In this document: positions 2,751 to 26,773 of the stretch, piece by piece
Layout: each line of letters starts with the position of its first letter
How positions within the stretch are numbered: the stretch's first letter is position 1
Notes under the pieces: generated by a model
What the model was told of the DNA's origin: nothing
What the model saw: only the letters and a program-made list of their open reading frames with translations
Databases searched by the model: none
Position numbers and translations under genes: made by a program
Origin: a virus
Lineage: Duplodnaviria > Caudoviricetes
IMG/VR virus record: IMGVR_UViG_3300009550_000529
Location: 1 to 39,644 of that record
Direction: 5' to 3' (one strand)
Length of the DNA: 39,644 nucleotides

Positions 2751-3194
2751 ATGAATATAGAATCTTTACTTGAAATGTGGCAGAAAGACTGTCATATAGA
2801 CGAAATGGCATTGGATGAAGCTACACGCGAATCCGCTAAATTACATTCTAAATACCTAGATCTTTACTCTAGATCTAAACTTAAATTAAAGAAATTGGAA
2901 TTTGATTTCAAACCACTCCTGCGCGATAAACAATTGCATTACTCTGGTAAACTATCACAGGAAGAGTTAGACCAAAAAGGATGGGAATACGATCCATTAA
3001 ATGGTTTAACTGTTTTAAAAAGTGATTTAGATAAATGGTATGATGCAGATCCTGTAATACAAGAACATCAATTAAAGATAGCTATGCAAGAAGAAATAGT
3101 AGCTACTTTAAAAGAGATAATGGATACGATAAGATGGAGACATCAATCTATTAAGAATATGATTGAGTGGAGAAAGTTTACTAGTGGAATATAA
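2751..3194 (+). CDS. uvsY: Recombination mediator UvsY
   Basis: W.KD..ID...LD......AKLHSKYL..., YSGK, D.DP, I.WRHQSIKNMIEWRKF.SG; position before uvsW. Confidence 0.9.
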   Translation: MNIESLLEMWQKDCHIDEMALDEATRESAKLHSKYLDLYSRSKLKLKKLEFDFKPLLRDKQLHYSGKLSQEELDQKGWEYDPLNGLTVLKSDLDKWYDADPVIQEHQLKIAMQEEIVATLKEIMDTIRWRHQSIKNMIEWRKFTSGI

Positions 3195-4077
3195 GATACA
3201 CCAATATCGTTTTGACAACTTTACTAAACACGAAGAAATAATTAGACAAGCGTTTAATGAACTTGGTCATACTGAAGTAGATAATCCTATACATGGATTA
3301 GTAGAATGGAATGTATATAACCATTGTCATATAAATGAAGTATATACCGCTAACAATATTATATTTAAACCTACTGCACCAACATCTAATCATTTTGTTT
3401 TAGATACTATAGGTTATGCAAATAGTTCTTCTTTAGCATTTAATAAACCACTACAAGTTGAAATGAGGAATTGGCCTAAAACAGATTATAATGTAATTAA
3501 TGCTTTTATTGAAACCAAATCTAATAAATGGGATGATTCTATATTATTGAAATGGCGTAAACCTAAAATAAAAATTCCAAATGACCATGTATTAATTATA
3601 GGACAACAACCACATGATGAAACTGTAAATGGTTTTGGGTTTGGTGACCATTGGAAAAAGATTTGCCAAATAGTAAATGCAATACCTAAAGACAATATAG
3701 TAATTAAATTACATCCAGCTATGAAAGGTAAGAAAGAACAAATAGCCAAATGGAGAAAAGAAGGAATAACTGTTATAGATGGATTTATTAGTATACATGA
3801 CGTGCTCCCGCGCACCCGCGTCGCGATCATAGATAATAGTACTGCAGGAATAGAATGTTTAATGCACCAAGTACCTATTATATCTTACGGATGGCCAGAA
3901 TACCATTGGGCAACAAAGAAATTACAAACACTAACAGAATTACCTAATTTGGTTAAAGATTTAGATTGGTATGATAAAGAATATGCAAACAATTTTATAT
4001 TATGGTATATACACGAATACCTTTGTTATGATGTTGAAAGCACTAAAGAAAGAATAAATGGAATCATTAATAGTTAA
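3184..4077 (+). CDS. Capsule polysaccharide synthesis KpsS/KpsC-like GT-B glycosyltransferase
   Basis: LIIGQQPHDETV, IVIKLHP, SIHDVL, IIDNSTAGIECLMHQVPIISYG.PEY match the Capsule_synth pattern (Q..D, K.HP, NST.G.EA). Start uncertain (GTG 3184 vs track 3163). Confidence 0.7.
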   Translation: MEYKIHQYRFDNFTKHEEIIRQAFNELGHTEVDNPIHGLVEWNVYNHCHINEVYTANNIIFKPTAPTSNHFVLDTIGYANSSSLAFNKPLQVEMRNWPKTDYNVINAFIETKSNKWDDSILLKWRKPKIKIPNDHVLIIGQQPHDETVNGFGFGDHWKKICQIVNAIPKDNIVIKLHPAMKGKKEQIAKWRKEGITVIDGFISIHDVLPRTRVAIIDNSTAGIECLMHQVPIISYGWPEYHWATKKLQTLTELPNLVKDLDWYDKEYANNFILWYIHEYLCYDVESTKERINGIINS

Positions 4078-5965: not shown

Positions 5966-5999
5966 ATTATATCATAAAAAACGAGTTTTGTAAACCCCC
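5966..5999 (-). promoter_or_regulatory. Antisense sigma70-type promoter of the same family
   Basis: Reverse complement reads GGGGG-TTTACA(5994-5989)-N17-TATAAT(5971-5966) with TGA extended -10. Confidence 0.75.
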
Positions 6000-6004
6000 A
6001 AATT

Positions 6005-6038
6005 GGGGATTTACTTTTCTTTTAAACTATGGTATAAT
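6005..6038 (+). promoter_or_regulatory. sigma70-type promoter for gp55-47-46
   Basis: GGGGA-TTTACT(6010-6015)-N17-TATAAT(6033-6038); GGAG SD downstream. Confidence 0.8.
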
Positions 6039-17301: not shown

Positions 17302-19863
17302 ATGAATTTTTACACAAATGTATCTCGTTATGGCAATATGCTACTATATCGTGGCGTAGAAAATGGCAAACGTGTACAAAAGAAAATCAAATACAAACCT
17401 ACACTTTTCGTAGGTACAAACAAAGCAACCAAATGGAAATCTCTCGATGGGGTTCCAGTTGCTCCTGTCCAGTTCGAATCTATGCGTGATGCTAAGAATT
17501 GGATTCAGGAAAACCAACACGTTGCAGGCAGATACATCTTTGGTAATACTAGATACCAATCCTGTCTTATCAACGATTTGTTTCCTGGGCATATACAGTT
17601 CGATAGAAACCTAATCAACGTAACCACTATCGATATAGAAGTCCAGTCAGACGATGGCTTCCCAGAACCTGGCGAAGCACTTAAACAGGTTACGGCAATC
17701 ACAATCAAAAACAATATTGACAATACATATTACGTTTGGGGGTTAGGCGACTACGATGTAGAAAAATCATATATGAAAACTAATCGTGTGGTCTATAAAA
17801 ATTGTCCCACCGAAAAAGATCTATTAGTATCTTTCATAGACCACTGGTCAACCCCGTCTAATACCCCAGACATCGTTACTGGATGGAACTCTAAGTTCTT
17901 CGATATACCTTATTTGGTCAATCGTATACGCAGAGTGTTCGGTCCAGATCTTGGCGAAGAGAACATTAAAAAGCTTTCCCCTTGGGGCATGGTCGAACGA
18001 AGAGAAGCTCGCATCGCATATAAATCTATGAACCGCGATGAAACGTATGAATTCCAGGGTATAACCCAAATGGATTATATGGAAGTATTCAAAAAGTTTG
18101 GCTATGCCTACGGTCAACAAGAATCATATTCCCTTAATAATATTGCTCACGTTGTACTAGACGAAGCTAAACTATCTTACGAAGAACACGGTTCTTTATT
18201 CAACCTATACAAAAACGACTTCCAAAAGTTTATTGACTATAACATAAAAGACGTAGAACTTGTAGATAGGTTCGAAGATAAAATGGGTCTAATTACTTTG
18301 GCCCTAACTATAGCTTACAAAGGTGGTGTTAACTATCAAGACGTATTTGGTACTACTGCAATATGGGACACAATCATTTACAGGGATTTGTATTCAGATA
18401 ACGTTGTGGTTCCGTTTCCAAAAGACCAAGAGAAAGGTGATTACCCAGGTGGTTATGTAAAAGAACCCCAAGTTGGTATGCATGACCACGTAGTTAGTTT
18501 CGATCTTAATTCACTATATCCTTCTTTGATTATGCAATACAATATGTCACCAGAGACTATTGCTAACGGAGAAATGGTTAATGTTAATGTAGATAGTATG
18601 CTAGAAGGTAATCAAAACGTGTACAAAGATGGTATGGGTCTTTGTGCAAATGGCCAATACTTCCATACAACCAAACAAGGTGTACTTCCTAAGATCATCG
18701 AAGAAATGTACGGTGAAAGAGTTGGTGTTAAGAAGGACATGTTAAAGTCACAGAAAGAATTGCAGAAGGTTGATAGCAATGACAAACAAGAAACGTACCG
18801 TATACAACGTGATATATCAATCGCGGAGAATAGGCAAATGGCAATTAAGATTCTTCTTAATAGTTTATATGGTGCTTTGGGTAATCGTTATTTTAGATTC
18901 TTCGACCAAAGAGTTGCAGAAGCCATTACCCTATCCGGGCAGCTCATCATCAGATGGGGAGAGAACGCAATTAATCAATACCTAAATAACCTACTTAAGA
19001 CTGACAAAGACTACGTATTAGCAATCGATACAGATTCTTTATATATTGGATTAGGTCCATTAGTAGAAAAGTTCGGTCCAGCTAATCCTATAGACTTCTT
19101 GGATAATGTTTGTAAAGAACTAGAAAATGTATTTGTAGAATCCTATGAAACATTGTTCCAAAGATATGGTGGAATAGAAAACAAAATGGTTATGGGCAGA
19201 GAGGTTATTGCAGATAGAGGGATATACCTAGCTAAGAAAAGATATATTCTAAATGTTGTAGACAACGAAGGTGTTAGGTACAAAGTTCCAAAGATTAAAA
19301 CAACTGGCGTAGAAGCCAACAAAAGTTCTACACCCGAAGTTTGCAGAGAGGCACTAAAAGAAATCTTTAAAGTTATTATTGCTTCAGACGAAGAAACAGT
19401 ACAGAAAGCAATCAAACAATTCAAAGAACATTTCTTTAGTCTTCCCCCGCACGAGGTCGCGTTCCCGCGTGGCGCGAACAATATAACTGGTTTCCAAGAC
19501 GTAGTCACATGGAAGAACCAAGCAGGAGATACGGTCAAGAACTACACATACAAGAAAGGTACACCGATCCATGTTCGTGGTGCATTACTTTACAATTGGC
19601 GTAGAAAAGAATTAGCTCTTAAGAATTATCCAGAACTAAGAAATGGTGACAAACTAAAATTTGTTTACCTACGTATGCCAAACCCAGTCAAAGAAAATGT
19701 AATTGCATTTCCAGATTACTTACCGCAAGAATTTGGTATACATAACTATGTAGATTATGAAATGCAATTCCAAAAAACATTCCTAGATGCAATTAAACCG
19801 ATATTGGATTCTATAGGTTGGAACGCAGAACCAGTTAGTACATTGGAGGATTTCTTTGGATAG
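17302..19863 (+). CDS. gp43: Family B DNA polymerase
   Basis: Exo motifs IDIE, TGWNSKFFDIPY, YNIKD; pol motifs SFDLNSLYPS, KILLNSLYG, AIDTDS; C-terminal clamp-binding LEDFF. Confidence 0.98.
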   Translation: MNFYTNVSRYGNMLLYRGVENGKRVQKKIKYKPTLFVGTNKATKWKSLDGVPVAPVQFESMRDAKNWIQENQHVAGRYIFGNTRYQSCLINDLFPGHIQFDRNLINVTTIDIEVQSDDGFPEPGEALKQVTAITIKNNIDNTYYVWGLGDYDVEKSYMKTNRVVYKNCPTEKDLLVSFIDHWSTPSNTPDIVTGWNSKFFDIPYLVNRIRRVFGPDLGEENIKKLSPWGMVERREARIAYKSMNRDETYEFQGITQMDYMEVFKKFGYAYGQQESYSLNNIAHVVLDEAKLSYEEHGSLFNLYKNDFQKFIDYNIKDVELVDRFEDKMGLITLALTIAYKGGVNYQDVFGTTAIWDTIIYRDLYSDNVVVPFPKDQEKGDYPGGYVKEPQVGMHDHVVSFDLNSLYPSLIMQYNMSPETIANGEMVNVNVDSMLEGNQNVYKDGMGLCANGQYFHTTKQGVLPKIIEEMYGERVGVKKDMLKSQKELQKVDSNDKQETYRIQRDISIAENRQMAIKILLNSLYGALGNRYFRFFDQRVAEAITLSGQLIIRWGENAINQYLNNLLKTDKDYVLAIDTDSLYIGLGPLVEKFGPANPIDFLDNVCKELENVFVESYETLFQRYGGIENKMVMGREVIADRGIYLAKKRYILNVVDNEGVRYKVPKIKTTGVEANKSSTPEVCREALKEIFKVIIASDEETVQKAIKQFKEHFFSLPPHEVAFPRGANNITGFQDVVTWKNQAGDTVKNYTYKKGTPIHVRGALLYNWRRKELALKNYPELRNGDKLKFVYLRMPNPVKENVIAFPDYLPQEFGIHNYVDYEMQFQKTFLDAIKPILDSIGWNAEPVSTLEDFFG

Positions 19864-19867
19864 AGTA

Positions 19868-20197
19868 ATGACCACATTGAGAAAGGTAATCTACGTTGGC
19901 ACTGAGCCAGGTAACTTTCCACCTAGTAAATCACCAACTATTAAAAGAATAACTAAATGGTCAGATAGAGCTGGTTTATTAAATTGGTCCTGGACTAATA
20001 TGTCGGATCCCGAACATTTAGAGAAGATAAAAGGGTGTAAGGTTATTGCAATGGGAAATGATGTTGCAAAACACTTTACTAAATATAATATAGAACATTT
20101 AAAAGTTCCACACCCCAGCGGACTTAACCGTATGTGGAACGATCCTGAACTTGAGCCTAAGGTGATAGAGGAAATTAGGGGATTTACAAACTCATGA
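19868..20197 (+). CDS. Minimal uracil-DNA-glycosylase-superfamily protein
   Basis: IYVGTEPG (motif A-like), VIAMGNDVA, VPHPSGLNR (motif B); about 110 aa; start 19868 or 19856. Confidence 0.6.
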   Translation: MTTLRKVIYVGTEPGNFPPSKSPTIKRITKWSDRAGLLNWSWTNMSDPEHLEKIKGCKVIAMGNDVAKHFTKYNIEHLKVPHPSGLNRMWNDPELEPKVIEEIRGFTNS

Positions 20198-20222: not shown

Positions 20223-20510
20223 ATGAAAATTAAATTGCTTAGATTAGTGTCCGGCGAAGAAATCATTGCTGAGATTACTAATTCAACCGAAGATAGTTAT
20301 CAAATAAAAGATGCTATTGTTATGATACCAGCTGGAGAAGGTAAACTAGGATTTATGCCTTGGATGCCTTACACAAAAGCTGCGGACGGGGTATCAGTCA
20401 GAAAACAAGATGTTATGTTTACGATTGACCCAATAGAAGATTTAGTAGATCAATTTAGAACTGCTAGGTCTGGAATAGAAACACCACCAAAAGGAATCAT
20501 TACAGGATGA
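20223..20510 (+). CDS. Sm/LSm-like fold conserved T4-like protein
   Basis: KLLRLVSGEEIIAEI...LGFMPWMPYT; resembles 5553..5936. Confidence 0.65.
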   Translation: MKIKLLRLVSGEEIIAEITNSTEDSYQIKDAIVMIPAGEGKLGFMPWMPYTKAADGVSVRKQDVMFTIDPIEDLVDQFRTARSGIETPPKGIITG

Positions 20511-20923
20511 GAAACTATAATAACTGGGTGAGAGATATAGAAGCCATGCAGGATAAGTATGGTATTAAAGATTGGATGGAAGATCCTGCAAATAAGGATA
20601 AGCTAAAAGACTTTATGGCATTTCGAATAGAATTCCTAAAAGAAGAATTCGAAGAAACAATCCAGGCTTTCAAAGATAAAGACCCAGAAGAGTTAATAGA
20701 TGGACACATTGATTTATGTGTTATTGCTATTGGAACGCTATTGGCGTTCGGTGTTGATGCCCAAGAAGCTTGGGACAGAGTACACAAAGCTAATATGGCC
20801 AAAGAGGTTGGTGTCAAACCTGGCAGACCAAACCCACTTGGATTACCAGATTTAGTTAAACCAGAAGGTTGGGAATCACCTTCACATTCGGGACTATATG
20901 GAAATCTCACTGACAATATTTGA
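20507..20923 (+). CDS. MazG-like/PRA-PH-type all-alpha NTP pyrophosphohydrolase
   Basis: FLKEEFEET...ELIDGHIDL (EE..E / E..D..D), AWDRVHKANMAK, DLVKPEGW..P. Confidence 0.82.
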   Translation: MRNYNNWVRDIEAMQDKYGIKDWMEDPANKDKLKDFMAFRIEFLKEEFEETIQAFKDKDPEELIDGHIDLCVIAIGTLLAFGVDAQEAWDRVHKANMAKEVGVKPGRPNPLGLPDLVKPEGWESPSHSGLYGNLTDNI

Positions 20924-23898: not shown

Positions 23899-23931
23899 GG
23901 GGTTTACTTTTATTTAAAACTACGGTATAAT
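23899..23931 (+). promoter_or_regulatory. sigma70-type promoter for the modification operon
   Basis: GGGG-TTTACT(23903-23908)-N17-TATAAT(23926-23931). Confidence 0.78.
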
Positions 23932-23940
23932 GGAGATATT

Positions 23941-24276
23941 ATGAAACCTTTAAATATATTAAAAACAGCTGCCGATCTTATTGTTAAGAAAGGCAATGAC
24001 TATCAGAATCCTAAATCTAGGATCAAACAAGCAGACTACTATCCAAATGGTGCACAAACTATTTTAGATATTATGACTGGTAAAGTTAATCGTATGCACT
24101 CTGTATTAGATGCTATGAAAGACGATGAAAACTATGTAGAAAATTTCGAATCACTTCATGATTCAGCTATCGACCTAATTAACTATGCTGCTTTCTTTTC
24201 AGCGTATTTAGACCACGATATAGATGGCCAAGATTCAAGTCGTGATATATTCAATCGGGTGAAAGATGAATCTTAA
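23941..24276 (+). CDS. Nucleotide-modification-associated (Nmad1/DUF1599-like, MazG-superfamily) protein
   Basis: AADLIVKKGNDY...K..R...ESLHDSAIDLINYAAF pattern (K..DY / K..R / DS..DL.NY). Confidence 0.65.
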   Translation: MKPLNILKTAADLIVKKGNDYQNPKSRIKQADYYPNGAQTILDIMTGKVNRMHSVLDAMKDDENYVENFESLHDSAIDLINYAAFFSAYLDHDIDGQDSSRDIFNRVKDES

Positions 24277-24985
24277 AGAAGGCTTATATAAATTACGTAA
24301 AGACCTTTTAGAAAAAGGTTATGAAATAGATACCGAAAGGTGGCAAGGTGCTACAGAACATCCCACGTTCTTAGAAATATTACATGCAGATATGCAAGCA
24401 GAAATGTACAATGATCCACAAGAAGCTAGTACAGAATTAGGTGCAGCACAACCTTGGGCAGACGAACACTTTGAAGAACGTGTTGGGGGTATACCTTGTA
24501 ACCCACCACCAAGTCATGTACACTGGTTAAAAGATACAGACAAATATCTAATGGATGAAGCATTCTCTCATTCATATCCAGAACGTATGTGGCAAGATAC
24601 AGAACAAATGGGTGTTAGATTTAATATAGCTAATCTAAATACCGCAGTAGAATTACTAAAGAAAGAACCAACAACAAGACAATGTTATATTCCTATTTGG
24701 TTTCCTGAAGATGGTACGGCCGCTCTCGCGGGCGAACGCGTTCCGTGCACGTTCGGGTGGCACTTTATGATTAGACATGGAAAACTACATTGTGCTTATC
24801 ACATGCGTTCTTGCGACGTTATGCGACATCTACATAATGACTTATACTTTGCTAATTGTTTGGCCTTATGGTTAATAGAACAAGCAGATCTAGATGTAGT
24901 ACCAGGAACAATACACTTTAGTGCTAGCTCTCTACATTGTTTTGTAGTAGATAAATATTCTTTAAATCAATTTGTAAACGGATAA
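24266..24985 (+). CDS. Thymidylate-synthase-fold enzyme, dCMP-hydroxymethylase-like
   Basis: SYPER, LLKKEPTTRQ..IPIW, RVPCT (catalytic Cys), YHMRSCD, HNDL (Asp at the E. coli N177 position), SLH. Confidence 0.82.
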   Translation: MNLKEGLYKLRKDLLEKGYEIDTERWQGATEHPTFLEILHADMQAEMYNDPQEASTELGAAQPWADEHFEERVGGIPCNPPPSHVHWLKDTDKYLMDEAFSHSYPERMWQDTEQMGVRFNIANLNTAVELLKKEPTTRQCYIPIWFPEDGTAALAGERVPCTFGWHFMIRHGKLHCAYHMRSCDVMRHLHNDLYFANCLALWLIEQADLDVVPGTIHFSASSLHCFVVDKYSLNQFVNG

Positions 24986-26310
24986 TGTGCGGATTTTTAA
25001 TACATAAACATAATACACCTAACAAGGAATTAACAGAACAAATCATGGAAGGAATGGCCTATCGCGGTCTTCCTGGATATTCTAATTATAAACATTGGAA
25101 AGGTTATGACATGGCTCATACATCTTTACCAATGGTCTGTAAAGACAAAGAAAAATCTATTCAACCAATACAAAATCATAGGTGGGAATCTCCATCAATG
25201 TTTGTTGGTGAAATATTTAATTGGGAAGACTTTGGTGAAGATTTCGATCACGACGGTCACATGTTACATTCACTATATAAAGAAATGGAAGACGATGATC
25301 TATTCCATCACTTCGATGGGTTCTGGTCCTTTATTACTTTTGTAGAAGATAAACCAATAGTCTATACAGATTTCTTAGGTATTAAACCTGTATATTATAG
25401 AACAGATGTAGAAGCTATTGCATCAGAACCAAACGCACTGATGGGTCTTGGTACTATTACACCTGATTACCTATATCTTTCTAATGTTATGAAATGGGGT
25501 TATGATTATACTGGTGCTACACCGTGGAACGAAATTAAACAATTAAAACCTGGCCATTATTTGTATGAGGGTCAAGAAGTAAGATACTATGATTGGACAA
25601 AGGTTCCTTGTCATAATCTAAGAGATGATTTAAGTCAAGCAGTTATTAATCGTTTAGGTGGATTTAGAGAGGCAGCTATATTACTTAGTGGTGGTTTAGA
25701 TTCTACAATCATACATGGATTAATCAAAGAACAAGGTTTGGATATAACACCAATACATGTTAGTAATCACGAAAAAGATTTCGCGTCCTTAGTCTGTAAA
25801 GATGTCGTAGAGGTTTCATTAGATTCTATTACAGATAGGGACGCAATCTCTATACACCAAACTCCTGTTGACCTTGGTTCAGTTAAACCACAAATAGCTA
25901 TGGGAGAACAGTTAAAAGAATTGGGATTTCATAATGTTCTAACAGGAGATGGCGCAGACGAATTATTTGGTGGTTATCGAAGAGCAAAAGAATACGATAG
26001 CCAATATTCAGATGTGTTTTGTGAATTGCCATATTATCATTTACCAAAACTAGATAGAACTATGATGTGGTCTACAGTGGAACTACGTGCTCCATTCTTA
26101 GCACCATCAGTTATATGTCATGGATTAAATACACCTTATTCAGAAAGACAAGGTGAAAAGAAAAGATTAAAAGAAGTATTTGCAGATCTAGTACCAAGTA
26201 AGATATTGGAAAGAGATAAGCATCCACTTAAAACTGATTCAATTAGGTATGAACCAATGAGACAAAGACAAATCAATAATACACTATGGAGAGACATGTA
26301 TGGGTTCTAA
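24985..26310 (+). CDS. Asparagine-synthetase-B-like amidotransferase (Ntn GATase plus PP-loop synthetase)
   Basis: N-terminal MCGF, GEIFN, DFLGIKPVYY, ASE, LLSGGLDST, LTGDGADELFGGY, LDR.MM...VELRAPFL. Confidence 0.9.
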   Translation: MCGFLIHKHNTPNKELTEQIMEGMAYRGLPGYSNYKHWKGYDMAHTSLPMVCKDKEKSIQPIQNHRWESPSMFVGEIFNWEDFGEDFDHDGHMLHSLYKEMEDDDLFHHFDGFWSFITFVEDKPIVYTDFLGIKPVYYRTDVEAIASEPNALMGLGTITPDYLYLSNVMKWGYDYTGATPWNEIKQLKPGHYLYEGQEVRYYDWTKVPCHNLRDDLSQAVINRLGGFREAAILLSGGLDSTIIHGLIKEQGLDITPIHVSNHEKDFASLVCKDVVEVSLDSITDRDAISIHQTPVDLGSVKPQIAMGEQLKELGFHNVLTGDGADELFGGYRRAKEYDSQYSDVFCELPYYHLPKLDRTMMWSTVELRAPFLAPSVICHGLNTPYSERQGEKKRLKEVFADLVPSKILERDKHPLKTDSIRYEPMRQRQINNTLWRDMYGF

Positions 26311-26740
26311 AAAGTATGACCACAGATATTTAGAGTTAGCTAAGTTCTTTTCTACTTGGTCTAAAGACCCTAGCACACAAATAGGTGCAGTAGCTATAGG
26401 ATCAAAAGGTCAAGTATTGGCACAAGGTTATAATGGGTTTCCTAGAAAGGTAAATGAATCAGATGAACGTTATACTAATAGAGAAACAAAATACAAATAT
26501 GTAGTTCATGCAGAAATGAATTGCATATACAACGCATCTTATAATGGTGCTAAGTTAGATGGTGCAACTATGTACGTATATGGATTACCAGTTTGTCACG
26601 AATGTGCAAAAGCTATTATCCAAGTAGGAATTACACGTGTGGTTGTACCAATTATAGATTTACCAGAAAGGTGGAAAGAATCCACCGACCTAACAATGAC
26701 AATGTTTGAAGAAGCAGGGGTCGAATATGAATTCATTTAG
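26300..26740 (+). CDS. cd: dCMP deaminase
   Basis: SKDPSTQIGA, GYNGFP, HAEMN, PVCHECAKAIIQ.GI. Confidence 0.92.
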   Translation: MGSKKYDHRYLELAKFFSTWSKDPSTQIGAVAIGSKGQVLAQGYNGFPRKVNESDERYTNRETKYKYVVHAEMNCIYNASYNGAKLDGATMYVYGLPVCHECAKAIIQVGITRVVVPIIDLPERWKESTDLTMTMFEEAGVEYEFI

Positions 26741-26773
26741 GGGGTTTACTTTTATTAAGTTTTATGGTATAAT
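26740..26773 (+). promoter_or_regulatory. sigma70-type promoter
   Basis: GGGGG-TTTACT(26745-26750)-N17-TATAAT(26768-26773). Confidence 0.8.

Follow-up and report, generated by a model that had tools for sequence, protein, structure and literature searches.

What does a phage make when it encodes a thymidylate synthase (TS) homologue and an asparagine-synthetase homologue in overlapping genes? This question is raised by a four-gene block in the IMG/VR record IMGVR_UViG_3300009550_000529, a 39.6-kb fragment of an uncultured marine T4-like phage (39,644 nucleotides, CheckV completeness 22%), which we analysed over its whole length and refer to as the window. The block encodes a small Nmad1-like protein, a TS-fold enzyme (TS1), an AsnB-like enzyme, and a protein of the deoxycytidine monophosphate (dCMP) deaminase family. 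An earlier note, made from the letters of the window alone, had proposed that these genes modify cytosine. Comparison of TS1 and AsnB sequences across phages suggests that their joint product is likely an undescribed nitrogen-bearing cytosine, and there is a fair chance that the block yields a new base. What our analysis adds is that TS1 is paired with AsnB or, alternatively, with a second TS-fold protein.

TS1 matches the profile PF00303 (E 1.3e-8), and its predicted model confirms a TS fold, with VIA-align Z scores of 17.6 to AfhB (9IQC, rmsd 3.1 over 208 aligned residues), 16.1 to MilA, and 13.6 to T4 dCH, compared with values below 4 for unrelated rows. The C-terminal half aligns with Escherichia coli ThyA such that C146, H147, R166, D169, and N177 of ThyA correspond to C161, T162, R181, D184, and D192 of TS1, respectively. 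An Asp at ThyA position 177 is the published dCMP-specificity rule for TS homologues (PMC8670742; PMC13326640). The assignment of the homologue to the dCMP type in the earlier note is borne out by Asp192 at this position, together with the catalytic Cys161 and Arg181, and TS1 is therefore predicted to be dCMP-specific. All three residues are invariant in 31 AsnB-class and 38 second-TS-class sequences (80% redundancy).

The surroundings of C5 are more unusual. Among the 12 residues catalogued within 6 Å of C5 (PMC13326640, section 28), two positions are basic in TS1 (L143 of ThyA is R158, G173 is H188), and further changes are found at L172 (R187), F176 (N191), and Y209 (F226). Position 143 is Leu in ThyA and Asp or Glu in hydroxymethylases (PMC13326640); in our alignments it is Asp in MilA, Glu in AfhB, and Asn in Xp12. 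Arg158 is present in all 31 AsnB-class sequences and in TS1 of the cultured phages Muddy, Shrew, and PMBT14, found by tblastn, whereas its invariance in the second-TS class is circular because the search motif itself required R158. Asp184, the counterpart of D169, is likewise present in 31 of 31 AsnB-class sequences, so that the flavin hydroxylase rule, the D169N replacement of AfhB-type 5-hydroxy-dCMP synthases, is excluded. The T4-type hydroxymethylase signature is also absent, as TS1 has Arg158 at the third position before the catalytic cysteine (Cys-3) and the stretch His102-Ser-Tyr104, in which His102 was mapped by motif. By eye, TS1 H68 corresponds to ThyA E58, with Glu there in 3 of the 31 AsnB-class sequences. 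By its residues, TS1 matches no characterised product class, a comparison for which dCMP methylases offer no sequence rule, and its folate site appears to have been rebuilt.

The second enzyme of the pair contains the PF00733 and GATase_7 domains and the motifs Cys2, SGGLDS, GDGADE, PVDLGS, YDSQxSD, and YHLPKLD. Its model shows the two-domain AS-B fold, an N-terminal nucleophile (Ntn) glutaminase joined to a PP-loop synthetase with an intact PP-loop (pLDDT 88.5, TM 0.79 to 1CT9). The protein scores below the asparagine-synthase cut-offs (157 vs 267 bits for TIGR01536, 101 vs 499 bits for NF006949). Among the matches listed in a profile search, its family forms 150 clusters at 50% identity, mostly of 430–470 residues, with the motifs PVDLGS, GYxR-YDSQxSD, and ELxxYHLPRLD over 137 rows. 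With a profile built from the family itself, full-length members in the analysed loci score at least 365 bits and other full-length AsnBs at most 267. In a quick tree of 46 rows, all 20 family members form one clade (SH-aLRT 100), set apart from 3 CmoX-linked and 23 other AsnBs; the CmoX-linked comparators are three loci with a C5-methyltransferase and AsnB, the CmoA-like methyltransferase being confirmed in one of them, and SpCmoY was left out of the tree. The earlier note had held that AsnB is no ordinary asparagine synthetase and that clustering with true asparagine synthetases would speak against its proposal; the low scores and the separate clade agree with its prediction. Solved relatives returned for the model are AS-B, ASNS, TsnB9, beta-lactam synthetase, and CarA, all of which are known to activate carboxylates and form amides. 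No cultured phage with this AsnB family was found by four tblastn queries on 50,697 phage records (best identities 22–31%), and in the 9 of 64 GTDB parts scanned for cellular members, the 80 best loci are 23–30% identical.

The two genes travel together, as the neighbourhood search suggested in the earlier note now shows. Among 57 distinct close TS1 sequences, part of which were collected using AsnB as the query, AsnB lies within three genes in 55 and is the immediately next gene in 53. Where the contig leaves room, all 48 close loci have the deaminase behind AsnB, and 41 of 51 have Nmad1 at most two genes upstream of TS1. Distant AsnBs adjoin TS1 in unrelated PolA-type phages of 36–68 kb. In a jumbo clade, AsnB lies directly behind a deoxynucleoside monophosphate (dNMP) kinase-like gene with TS1 elsewhere in the genome; TS1 was found in the complete G011 and in G010 and not in the remaining fragments of this clade, with matches in 6 of 22 records, including both of the near-complete ones. 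The smallest arrangement is that of G080 (36 kb, terminal repeats, CheckV 73%), whose block consists of DUF6378, a dimeric dNTPase-like gene, TS1, AsnB, and dUTPase. This reduced block, together with gene losses elsewhere, points to a core of TS1, AsnB, and a pyrophosphatase. A kinase fills the AsnB slot in L090-L092; the idea that AsnB replaces the dNMP kinase was nevertheless rejected, since the two genes occur together in L338, G023, and the jumbo clade. As a separate observation, the lambda-type portal/terminase phage L094 (G086) encodes Nmad1, TS1, and deaminase, the first two about 60% identical to those of the window, with no AsnB in its 13-kb fragment; this cassette was likely transferred between phage types. 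Three genes of the thymidylate-synthase type lie on the 49.6-kb fragment G009 (L177-L179), namely those for TS1, ThyX, and a canonical ThyA accompanied by dihydrofolate reductase (DHFR).

The TS1 family is widespread, with about 690 IMG/VR stored stretches estimated for one motif. A TS1 motif scan blind to AsnB gave 120 loci from 24 of 64 parts scanned, with full flanks for 80. In 36 of the 120, TS1 is adjoined by a second TS-like family of 250–360 residues, which keeps the Cys, the R166-like Arg, and the Asp at the N177 position and matches the TS1 profile weakly (hhalign E 0.0012, probability 19%). We searched whole records for 50 of the 80 loci, chosen mostly on the longest contigs, of which 49 were searchable: the second TS occurs in 22, AsnB in 6, and both in none. 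When the count is confined to the 23 records with a completeness of 90% or more, 19 have the second TS, 3 have AsnB, none has both, and one, G038, has neither; a weakly matching open reading frame (E 1.6e-5) lies directly upstream of its TS1. G039 and G076 (75–79% complete) also have neither. Searching 37 AsnB-bearing records for the second TS returned only TS1 itself. Since the second-TS profile was built from the same loci, finding the family there is circular, and weight can be given only to its absences. All three complete AsnB records belong to a single jumbo type, and the counts carry no phylogenetic correction. The catalytic and family residues of TS1 are the same in both classes, which, together with the lack of co-occurrence, fits two alternative second steps acting on one TS1 product. 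We also observed C5-methyltransferase variants with PEC, PDC, or PKC in place of the usual PPC (L342:2264-3382, L310:2862-4367, L500:3359-4480, L499:3808-4785) or with CPC (L091:6648-7850); they are found next to TS1 whether AsnB, the second TS, or neither of these accompanies it, and are possibly a third kind of partner.

From gene anatomy, folds, residues, and co-occurrence, we infer the substrate, donor, product, and DNA incorporation as follows. Before DNA synthesis, TS1 would attach to C5 of dCMP a group that contains oxygen and is probably carboxylated, and AsnB would adenylate this group with ATP and exchange oxygen for ammonia, giving a C5 carboxamide-type dCMP. MazG/Nmad1-type hydrolases would remove deoxycytidine triphosphate (dCTP), host or phage kinases would produce the triphosphate of the modified dCMP, and the deaminase, as an optional helper, would feed the deoxyuridine and thymidine monophosphate (dUMP/dTMP) pools. 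The modified base would likely serve escape from host nucleases. Asp177-type TS enzymes modify C5 of dCMP before replication, and enzymes of the AsnB family activate a carboxylate by adenylation to form an amide, as shown for CmoY (PMC12783734). The complete G006 and G007 carry ThyX and gave no match for DHFR or for CmoA (TIGR00740), suggesting that TS1 is not needed for dTMP and that no carboxy-S-adenosylmethionine (Cx-SAM) route supplies the acid; the Cx-SAM route was rejected on this ground. The block contains no C5-methyltransferase. With CmoA and CmoX both missing, and with no alternative enzyme encoded in the minimal genome, TS1 itself would supply the acceptor. An anionic group would fit well beside the Arg and His that adjoin C5, which favours a C5 acid converted to a carboxamide. 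CmoX is marked by a carboxylate-binding Arg (PMC12783734), to which Arg158 of TS1 may be an analogous parallel.

We consider the chances evenly balanced that TS1 and AsnB make a nitrogen-bearing C5-modified deoxycytidine (dC) by oxygen-to-nitrogen exchange, most probably in the form of an amide; taken by itself, the amide is a tentative assignment. Among the options offered by the earlier note, the carboxamide is thus favoured at this tentative level, and C4 re-amination and 5-amino-dC are the weakest. In a bolder version, which we think rather unlikely, TS1 would be a folate-independent C5-carboxylating or carboxyalkylating enzyme; with AsnB, a cytosine-5-carboxamide-type base would replace cytosine in many uncultured phages, and with the second TS, a sibling base would do so in cultured phages, e.g., Muddy.

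Several observations weigh against an amide made by this pair. To our knowledge, no TS-fold enzyme carboxylates C5. AsnB lies inside only 3 of the 120 motif-picked TS1 loci (full flanks for 80), and the close TS1 loci L091 and L094 have no AsnB nearby. No HMM alignment of the N-terminal half of TS1 to a solved TS was obtained, so claims on the folate pocket there are made by eye, and residues 88–120 of the TS1 model have pLDDT below 50. A dNMP kinase (DNMK) was not detected in the window, G001, G006, G007, or G080, which is awkward for a bulky pre-replicative base. In some genomes, C-containing palindromes are still avoided (CTAG at 0.06 of expectation in G080, CGCG at 0.12 in the second-TS record G057), although full protective substitution would not need such avoidance; as a test of substitution, palindrome avoidance gave a mixed outcome and had no unmodified control. 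MetaGPA shows no significant enrichment of Asn_synthase among contigs with modified cytosine (6 vs 255, p 0.059, corrected 1), a domain-level count.

The glutamine site of AsnB also speaks against the simplest version of this chemistry. R49 and N74, presumably the glutamine-binding positions of AS-B, are replaced by Ser47 and Val74 in the window (aligned to 1CT9), and by Ser or Ala plus Val in all 131 parsed close rows, which were not de-duplicated. R49 is retained in 101 of 137 wider representatives, and many distant members keep both Arg and Asn. Judged from these positions, the window enzyme may use ammonia, and glutamine as the nitrogen donor is doubtful in its clade. The nucleophilic Cys is nonetheless invariant in 30 of 30 close sequences.

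The either/or pattern could also be one step done two ways, which makes the following the main rival. TS1 would hydroxymethylate dCMP as an unusual member of that enzyme class. AsnB would then activate the oxygen of the 5-hydroxymethyl group by adenylation so that ammonia displaces it to give 5-aminomethyl-dC, and the second TS would perform the swap via a C6 adduct and an exocyclic methylene. The exclusion of one partner by the other would then be non-orthologous displacement, the Cys, Arg, and Asp kept by the second TS family would suit such a swap, the lack of DHFR in G006 and G007 fits non-reductive folate use, and activated 5-hydroxymethyl groups do accept amines in thymidine hypermodification (PMC8989533). 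However, the hydroxymethylase signature, an acidic residue at Cys-3 and Ser two before Tyr (PMC6400193), is missing from TS1, which has Arg158 and His102 instead. Nor is any AsnB-family enzyme known to adenylate an alcohol. The missing kinases, the MetaGPA result, and the residual palindrome avoidance count against aminomethylation as they do against the amide. Altogether, this is a minority possibility.

Alternatively, AsnB could aminate C4 of a uracil-type nucleotide (dUMP, dUTP, or a C5-modified form), either to rescue the dCTP pool or as a detour via the deaminase and host thymidylate kinase. PP-loop enzymes such as GuaA, TilS, and ThiI adenylate nucleobase carbonyls; the constant deaminase behind AsnB in close loci and the several complete genomes lacking a dedicated kinase agree with such a detour. 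It is improbable, as G080 has AsnB but no deaminase, kinase and AsnB occur together in L338, G023, and the jumbo clade, and exclusivity with a cytosine-type second TS is left unexplained. An ordinary Xp12-type 5-methylcytosine (5mC) cassette of TS, deaminase, and MazG with an unrelated AsnB inserted, e.g., a true asparagine synthetase or a glycan amidotransferase, has a similarly small chance. An Asp177-type TS beside a dCMP deaminase is a published neighbourhood of 5mC and 5-hydroxymethylcytosine, in which 5 of 7 such TS made 5mdCMP (bioRxiv 2024.12.05.627091), and sugar-nucleotide genes flank some loci. On the other side, Xp12 TS matches only residues 119–226 at 34% and has DHFR beside it, AsnB falls below both cut-offs in a clade of its own, and it accompanies TS1 in phages of unrelated types but was not found together with the second TS. 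Very improbable, finally, is a flavin/O2-dependent dCMP 5-hydroxylase like AfhB whose product AsnB turns into 5-amino-dC: AfhB (9IQC) is the top structural match of TS1 and the cofactor side looks rebuilt, but the lead is small (Z 17.6 vs 16.3 for the next) with a partly low-confidence model, and every tested 5-hydroxy-dCMP synthase has the D169N replacement (PMC13326640, section 28) where TS1 keeps Asp.

As for the anatomy of the block (Table 1), the four overlapping, coupled genes described in the earlier note are confirmed by the coordinates, with overlaps of 11 nt (Nmad1/TS1), 1 nt (TAATG, TS1/AsnB), and 11 nt (AsnB/deaminase). Its single promoter and end at the next promoter agree with the motif positions: the promoter-like motif TTTAC[AT]-N16-18-TATAAT occurs 12 times in the window compared with 0.33 expected from shuffles, and two copies bracket the block with none between them. 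The extended motif TTTAC[AT]-N17-TATAAT spans window positions 2715-31136 in 12 copies, most with [CT]G[GA] ahead of the -10 box, and a divergent pair lies at 5966-6038. Three RNA libraries contain contigs 90–95% like the block, one of 1669 nt covering AsnB and the deaminase, in a comparison that had no silent-stretch control.

Table 1. Features of the modification block and its upstream pyrophosphohydrolase gene in the window.
Feature	Position	Strand	Basis
MazG/PRA-PH pyrophosphohydrolase, candidate dCTP purge enzyme	20507..20923	+	PF01503, E 4.5e-11
Promoter-like motif TTTACT-N17-TATAAT heading the block	23903..23931	+	Motif scan
Nmad1/DUF1599-like small protein, 111 aa, predicted nucleotide pyrophosphatase-type accessory, dispensable	23941..24276	+	PHROG and Atlas feature match
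TS-fold enzyme TS1, 239 aa, predicted dCMP-specific	24266..24985	+	PF00303, residues, fold match
AsnB-like Ntn and PP-loop enzyme, 441 aa, TS-linked family	24985..26310	+	PF00733 and GATase_7, model
dCMP deaminase-family protein (HAE / PCxxC), 146 aa, accessory	26300..26740	+	PF00383
Next promoter-like motif, marking the block end	26745..26773	+	Motif scan

The four genes listed in the earlier note do not form a fixed unit: some complete genomes lack the deaminase, some the dNMP kinase, and some Nmad1. A BLAST search with Nmad1 gave no match in the complete G006 and G007, and the deaminase, a PF00383 match in the block, has none in G080. The Nmad1-like identity stands on PHROG 1485/18404 and on a feature match in Atlas, scoring 0.97, to a cluster in which PF07659/DUF1599 is carried by 48% of the members, a family that we take to be Nmad1 with a MazG-type fold; there is no Pfam match at E 0.01, and the label is weaker for it. 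The MazG/PRA-PH gene, absent from the operon list of the earlier note, lies 3 kb upstream of the block and is kept upstream in relatives.

Other genes accompany the block in some lineages. An N4/N6-methyltransferase-like gene (PF01555, G[ST]PYP; e.g., L005:3953-4894) immediately precedes Nmad1 in 24 of the 42 close loci that leave room for it, and also lies beside the distant AsnBs of L275, L280, L289, L310, and L312; in L157:2079-3350 such a gene, together with S-adenosylhomocysteine hydrolase, is inserted between TS1 and AsnB. It could methylate the modified base in some lineages but was rejected as a required part, being found in only those 24 close loci and not in the window. A small gene of the uracil-DNA glycosylase (UDG) superfamily (PF03167, weak; window 19856-20197) overlaps the end of the PolB gene and is kept in many relatives, and the PolA N-terminus of second-TS phages often appears UDG-like; these genes may reflect pressure to remove uracil. 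Between UvsY and UvsW, window 3163-4077 encodes a 304-residue glycosyltransferase-like protein (Capsule_synth, PF05159) kept in G001-G003. Long gene arrays for radical-SAM/SPASM proteins, 2-oxoglutarate-Fe(II) oxygenases, carbamoyltransferases, and glycosyltransferases stand among the tail genes of G006 (L161-L162) and G007 (L169-L171), at a great distance from the TS block. T4-like genes recognised in the window by domain and PHROG matches are gp23, UvsW, gp55, gp46/47, clamp and loader, RegA, and PolB; UvsX- and gp41-like genes downstream of the block were labelled by eye. The public sequencing runs in which the block was found come from marine metagenomes, with 20 rows from 9 studies.

Our literature search, with an earlier computational survey and preprint supplements outside its scope, found no paper on a phage TS and asparagine-synthetase pair or its product, none naming the candidate bases together with phage, and none giving the base or product of this TS family, including cultured Muddy-type phages. 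New phage bases have brought new chemistry, evasion of restriction and CRISPR, and often a sequencing tool. Through the either/or pattern, the uncultured phages with AsnB are linked to cultured ones that have the same TS1, in which the first step is open to test. Were the bolder version given above true, it would mean one new reaction for the TS fold and two undescribed DNA bases.

Two parts of the scheme are already known: a TS-made modified dCMP with a tailoring enzyme, dCTP purge, and deaminase, and AsnB-type amidation of DNA cytosine by CmoY. CmoY of Synechococcus phage S-B43 is an asparagine-synthetase homologue that forms an amide on a cytosine C5 group in DNA (PMC12783734), so the earlier note's statement that no characterised base comes from a TS and AsnB pair holds for the pair, whereas an AsnB homologue has been characterised behind a different first enzyme. 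The CmoA/CmoX/CmoY system and the block share a phage AsnB homologue as amide former, a role predicted for the block. They differ in that CmoX is a DNA C5-carboxymethyltransferase using Cx-SAM after replication and TS1 a TS-fold nucleotide enzyme, in the absence of CmoA from complete AsnB carriers, and in the separate AsnB clade of the quick tree. Also predicted in the same work is another cluster, which has a glutamine amidase domain and uses ammonia; in IMG/VR, L319, L320, and L323 are loci with C5-methyltransferase, AsnB, and CmoA-like genes that resemble it.

With the T4 gp42 pathway and the 5-carbamoyloxymethyl-dC cassette (PMC6400193; PMC8670742), the block shares an Asp177-type TS, pyrophosphohydrolase and dCMP deaminase neighbours, and the T4-like location between gp43 and gp41. 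In contrast to gp42, TS1 has Arg and no acidic residue at Cys-3, and AsnB occupies the place where a glucosyl- or carbamoyltransferase would be expected. The Xp12/PaMx74 5mC cassette also has an Asp177-type TS, a dCMP-family deaminase in cis, and PRA-PH/MazG (bioRxiv 10.1101/2024.12.05.627091), but its TS is of another family (34% over 108 residues), complete AsnB carriers have ThyX and no DHFR, and AsnB is extra; selectivity of the 5mC-selective deaminases (mSCD) is polyphyletic in that work. AfhB and the RB69-type flavin-dependent 5-hydroxy-dCMP synthases (9IQC; PMC13326640) share the short TS fold acting on dCMP and set a precedent for non-folate chemistry; TS1 lacks their D169N, and the block has no glycosyltransferase. 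Closest to the block in their first enzyme are the cultured phages Muddy (Mycobacterium), Shrew (Curtobacterium), and PMBT14 (Pseudomonas) and the Gordonia phages, which have the same TS1 family at 35–45% identity with kinase, dNTPase, and deaminase. They carry no AsnB; an unannotated gene of 260–340 residues lies ahead of the TS, in the slot that holds the weakly TS-like family in the IMG/VR loci.

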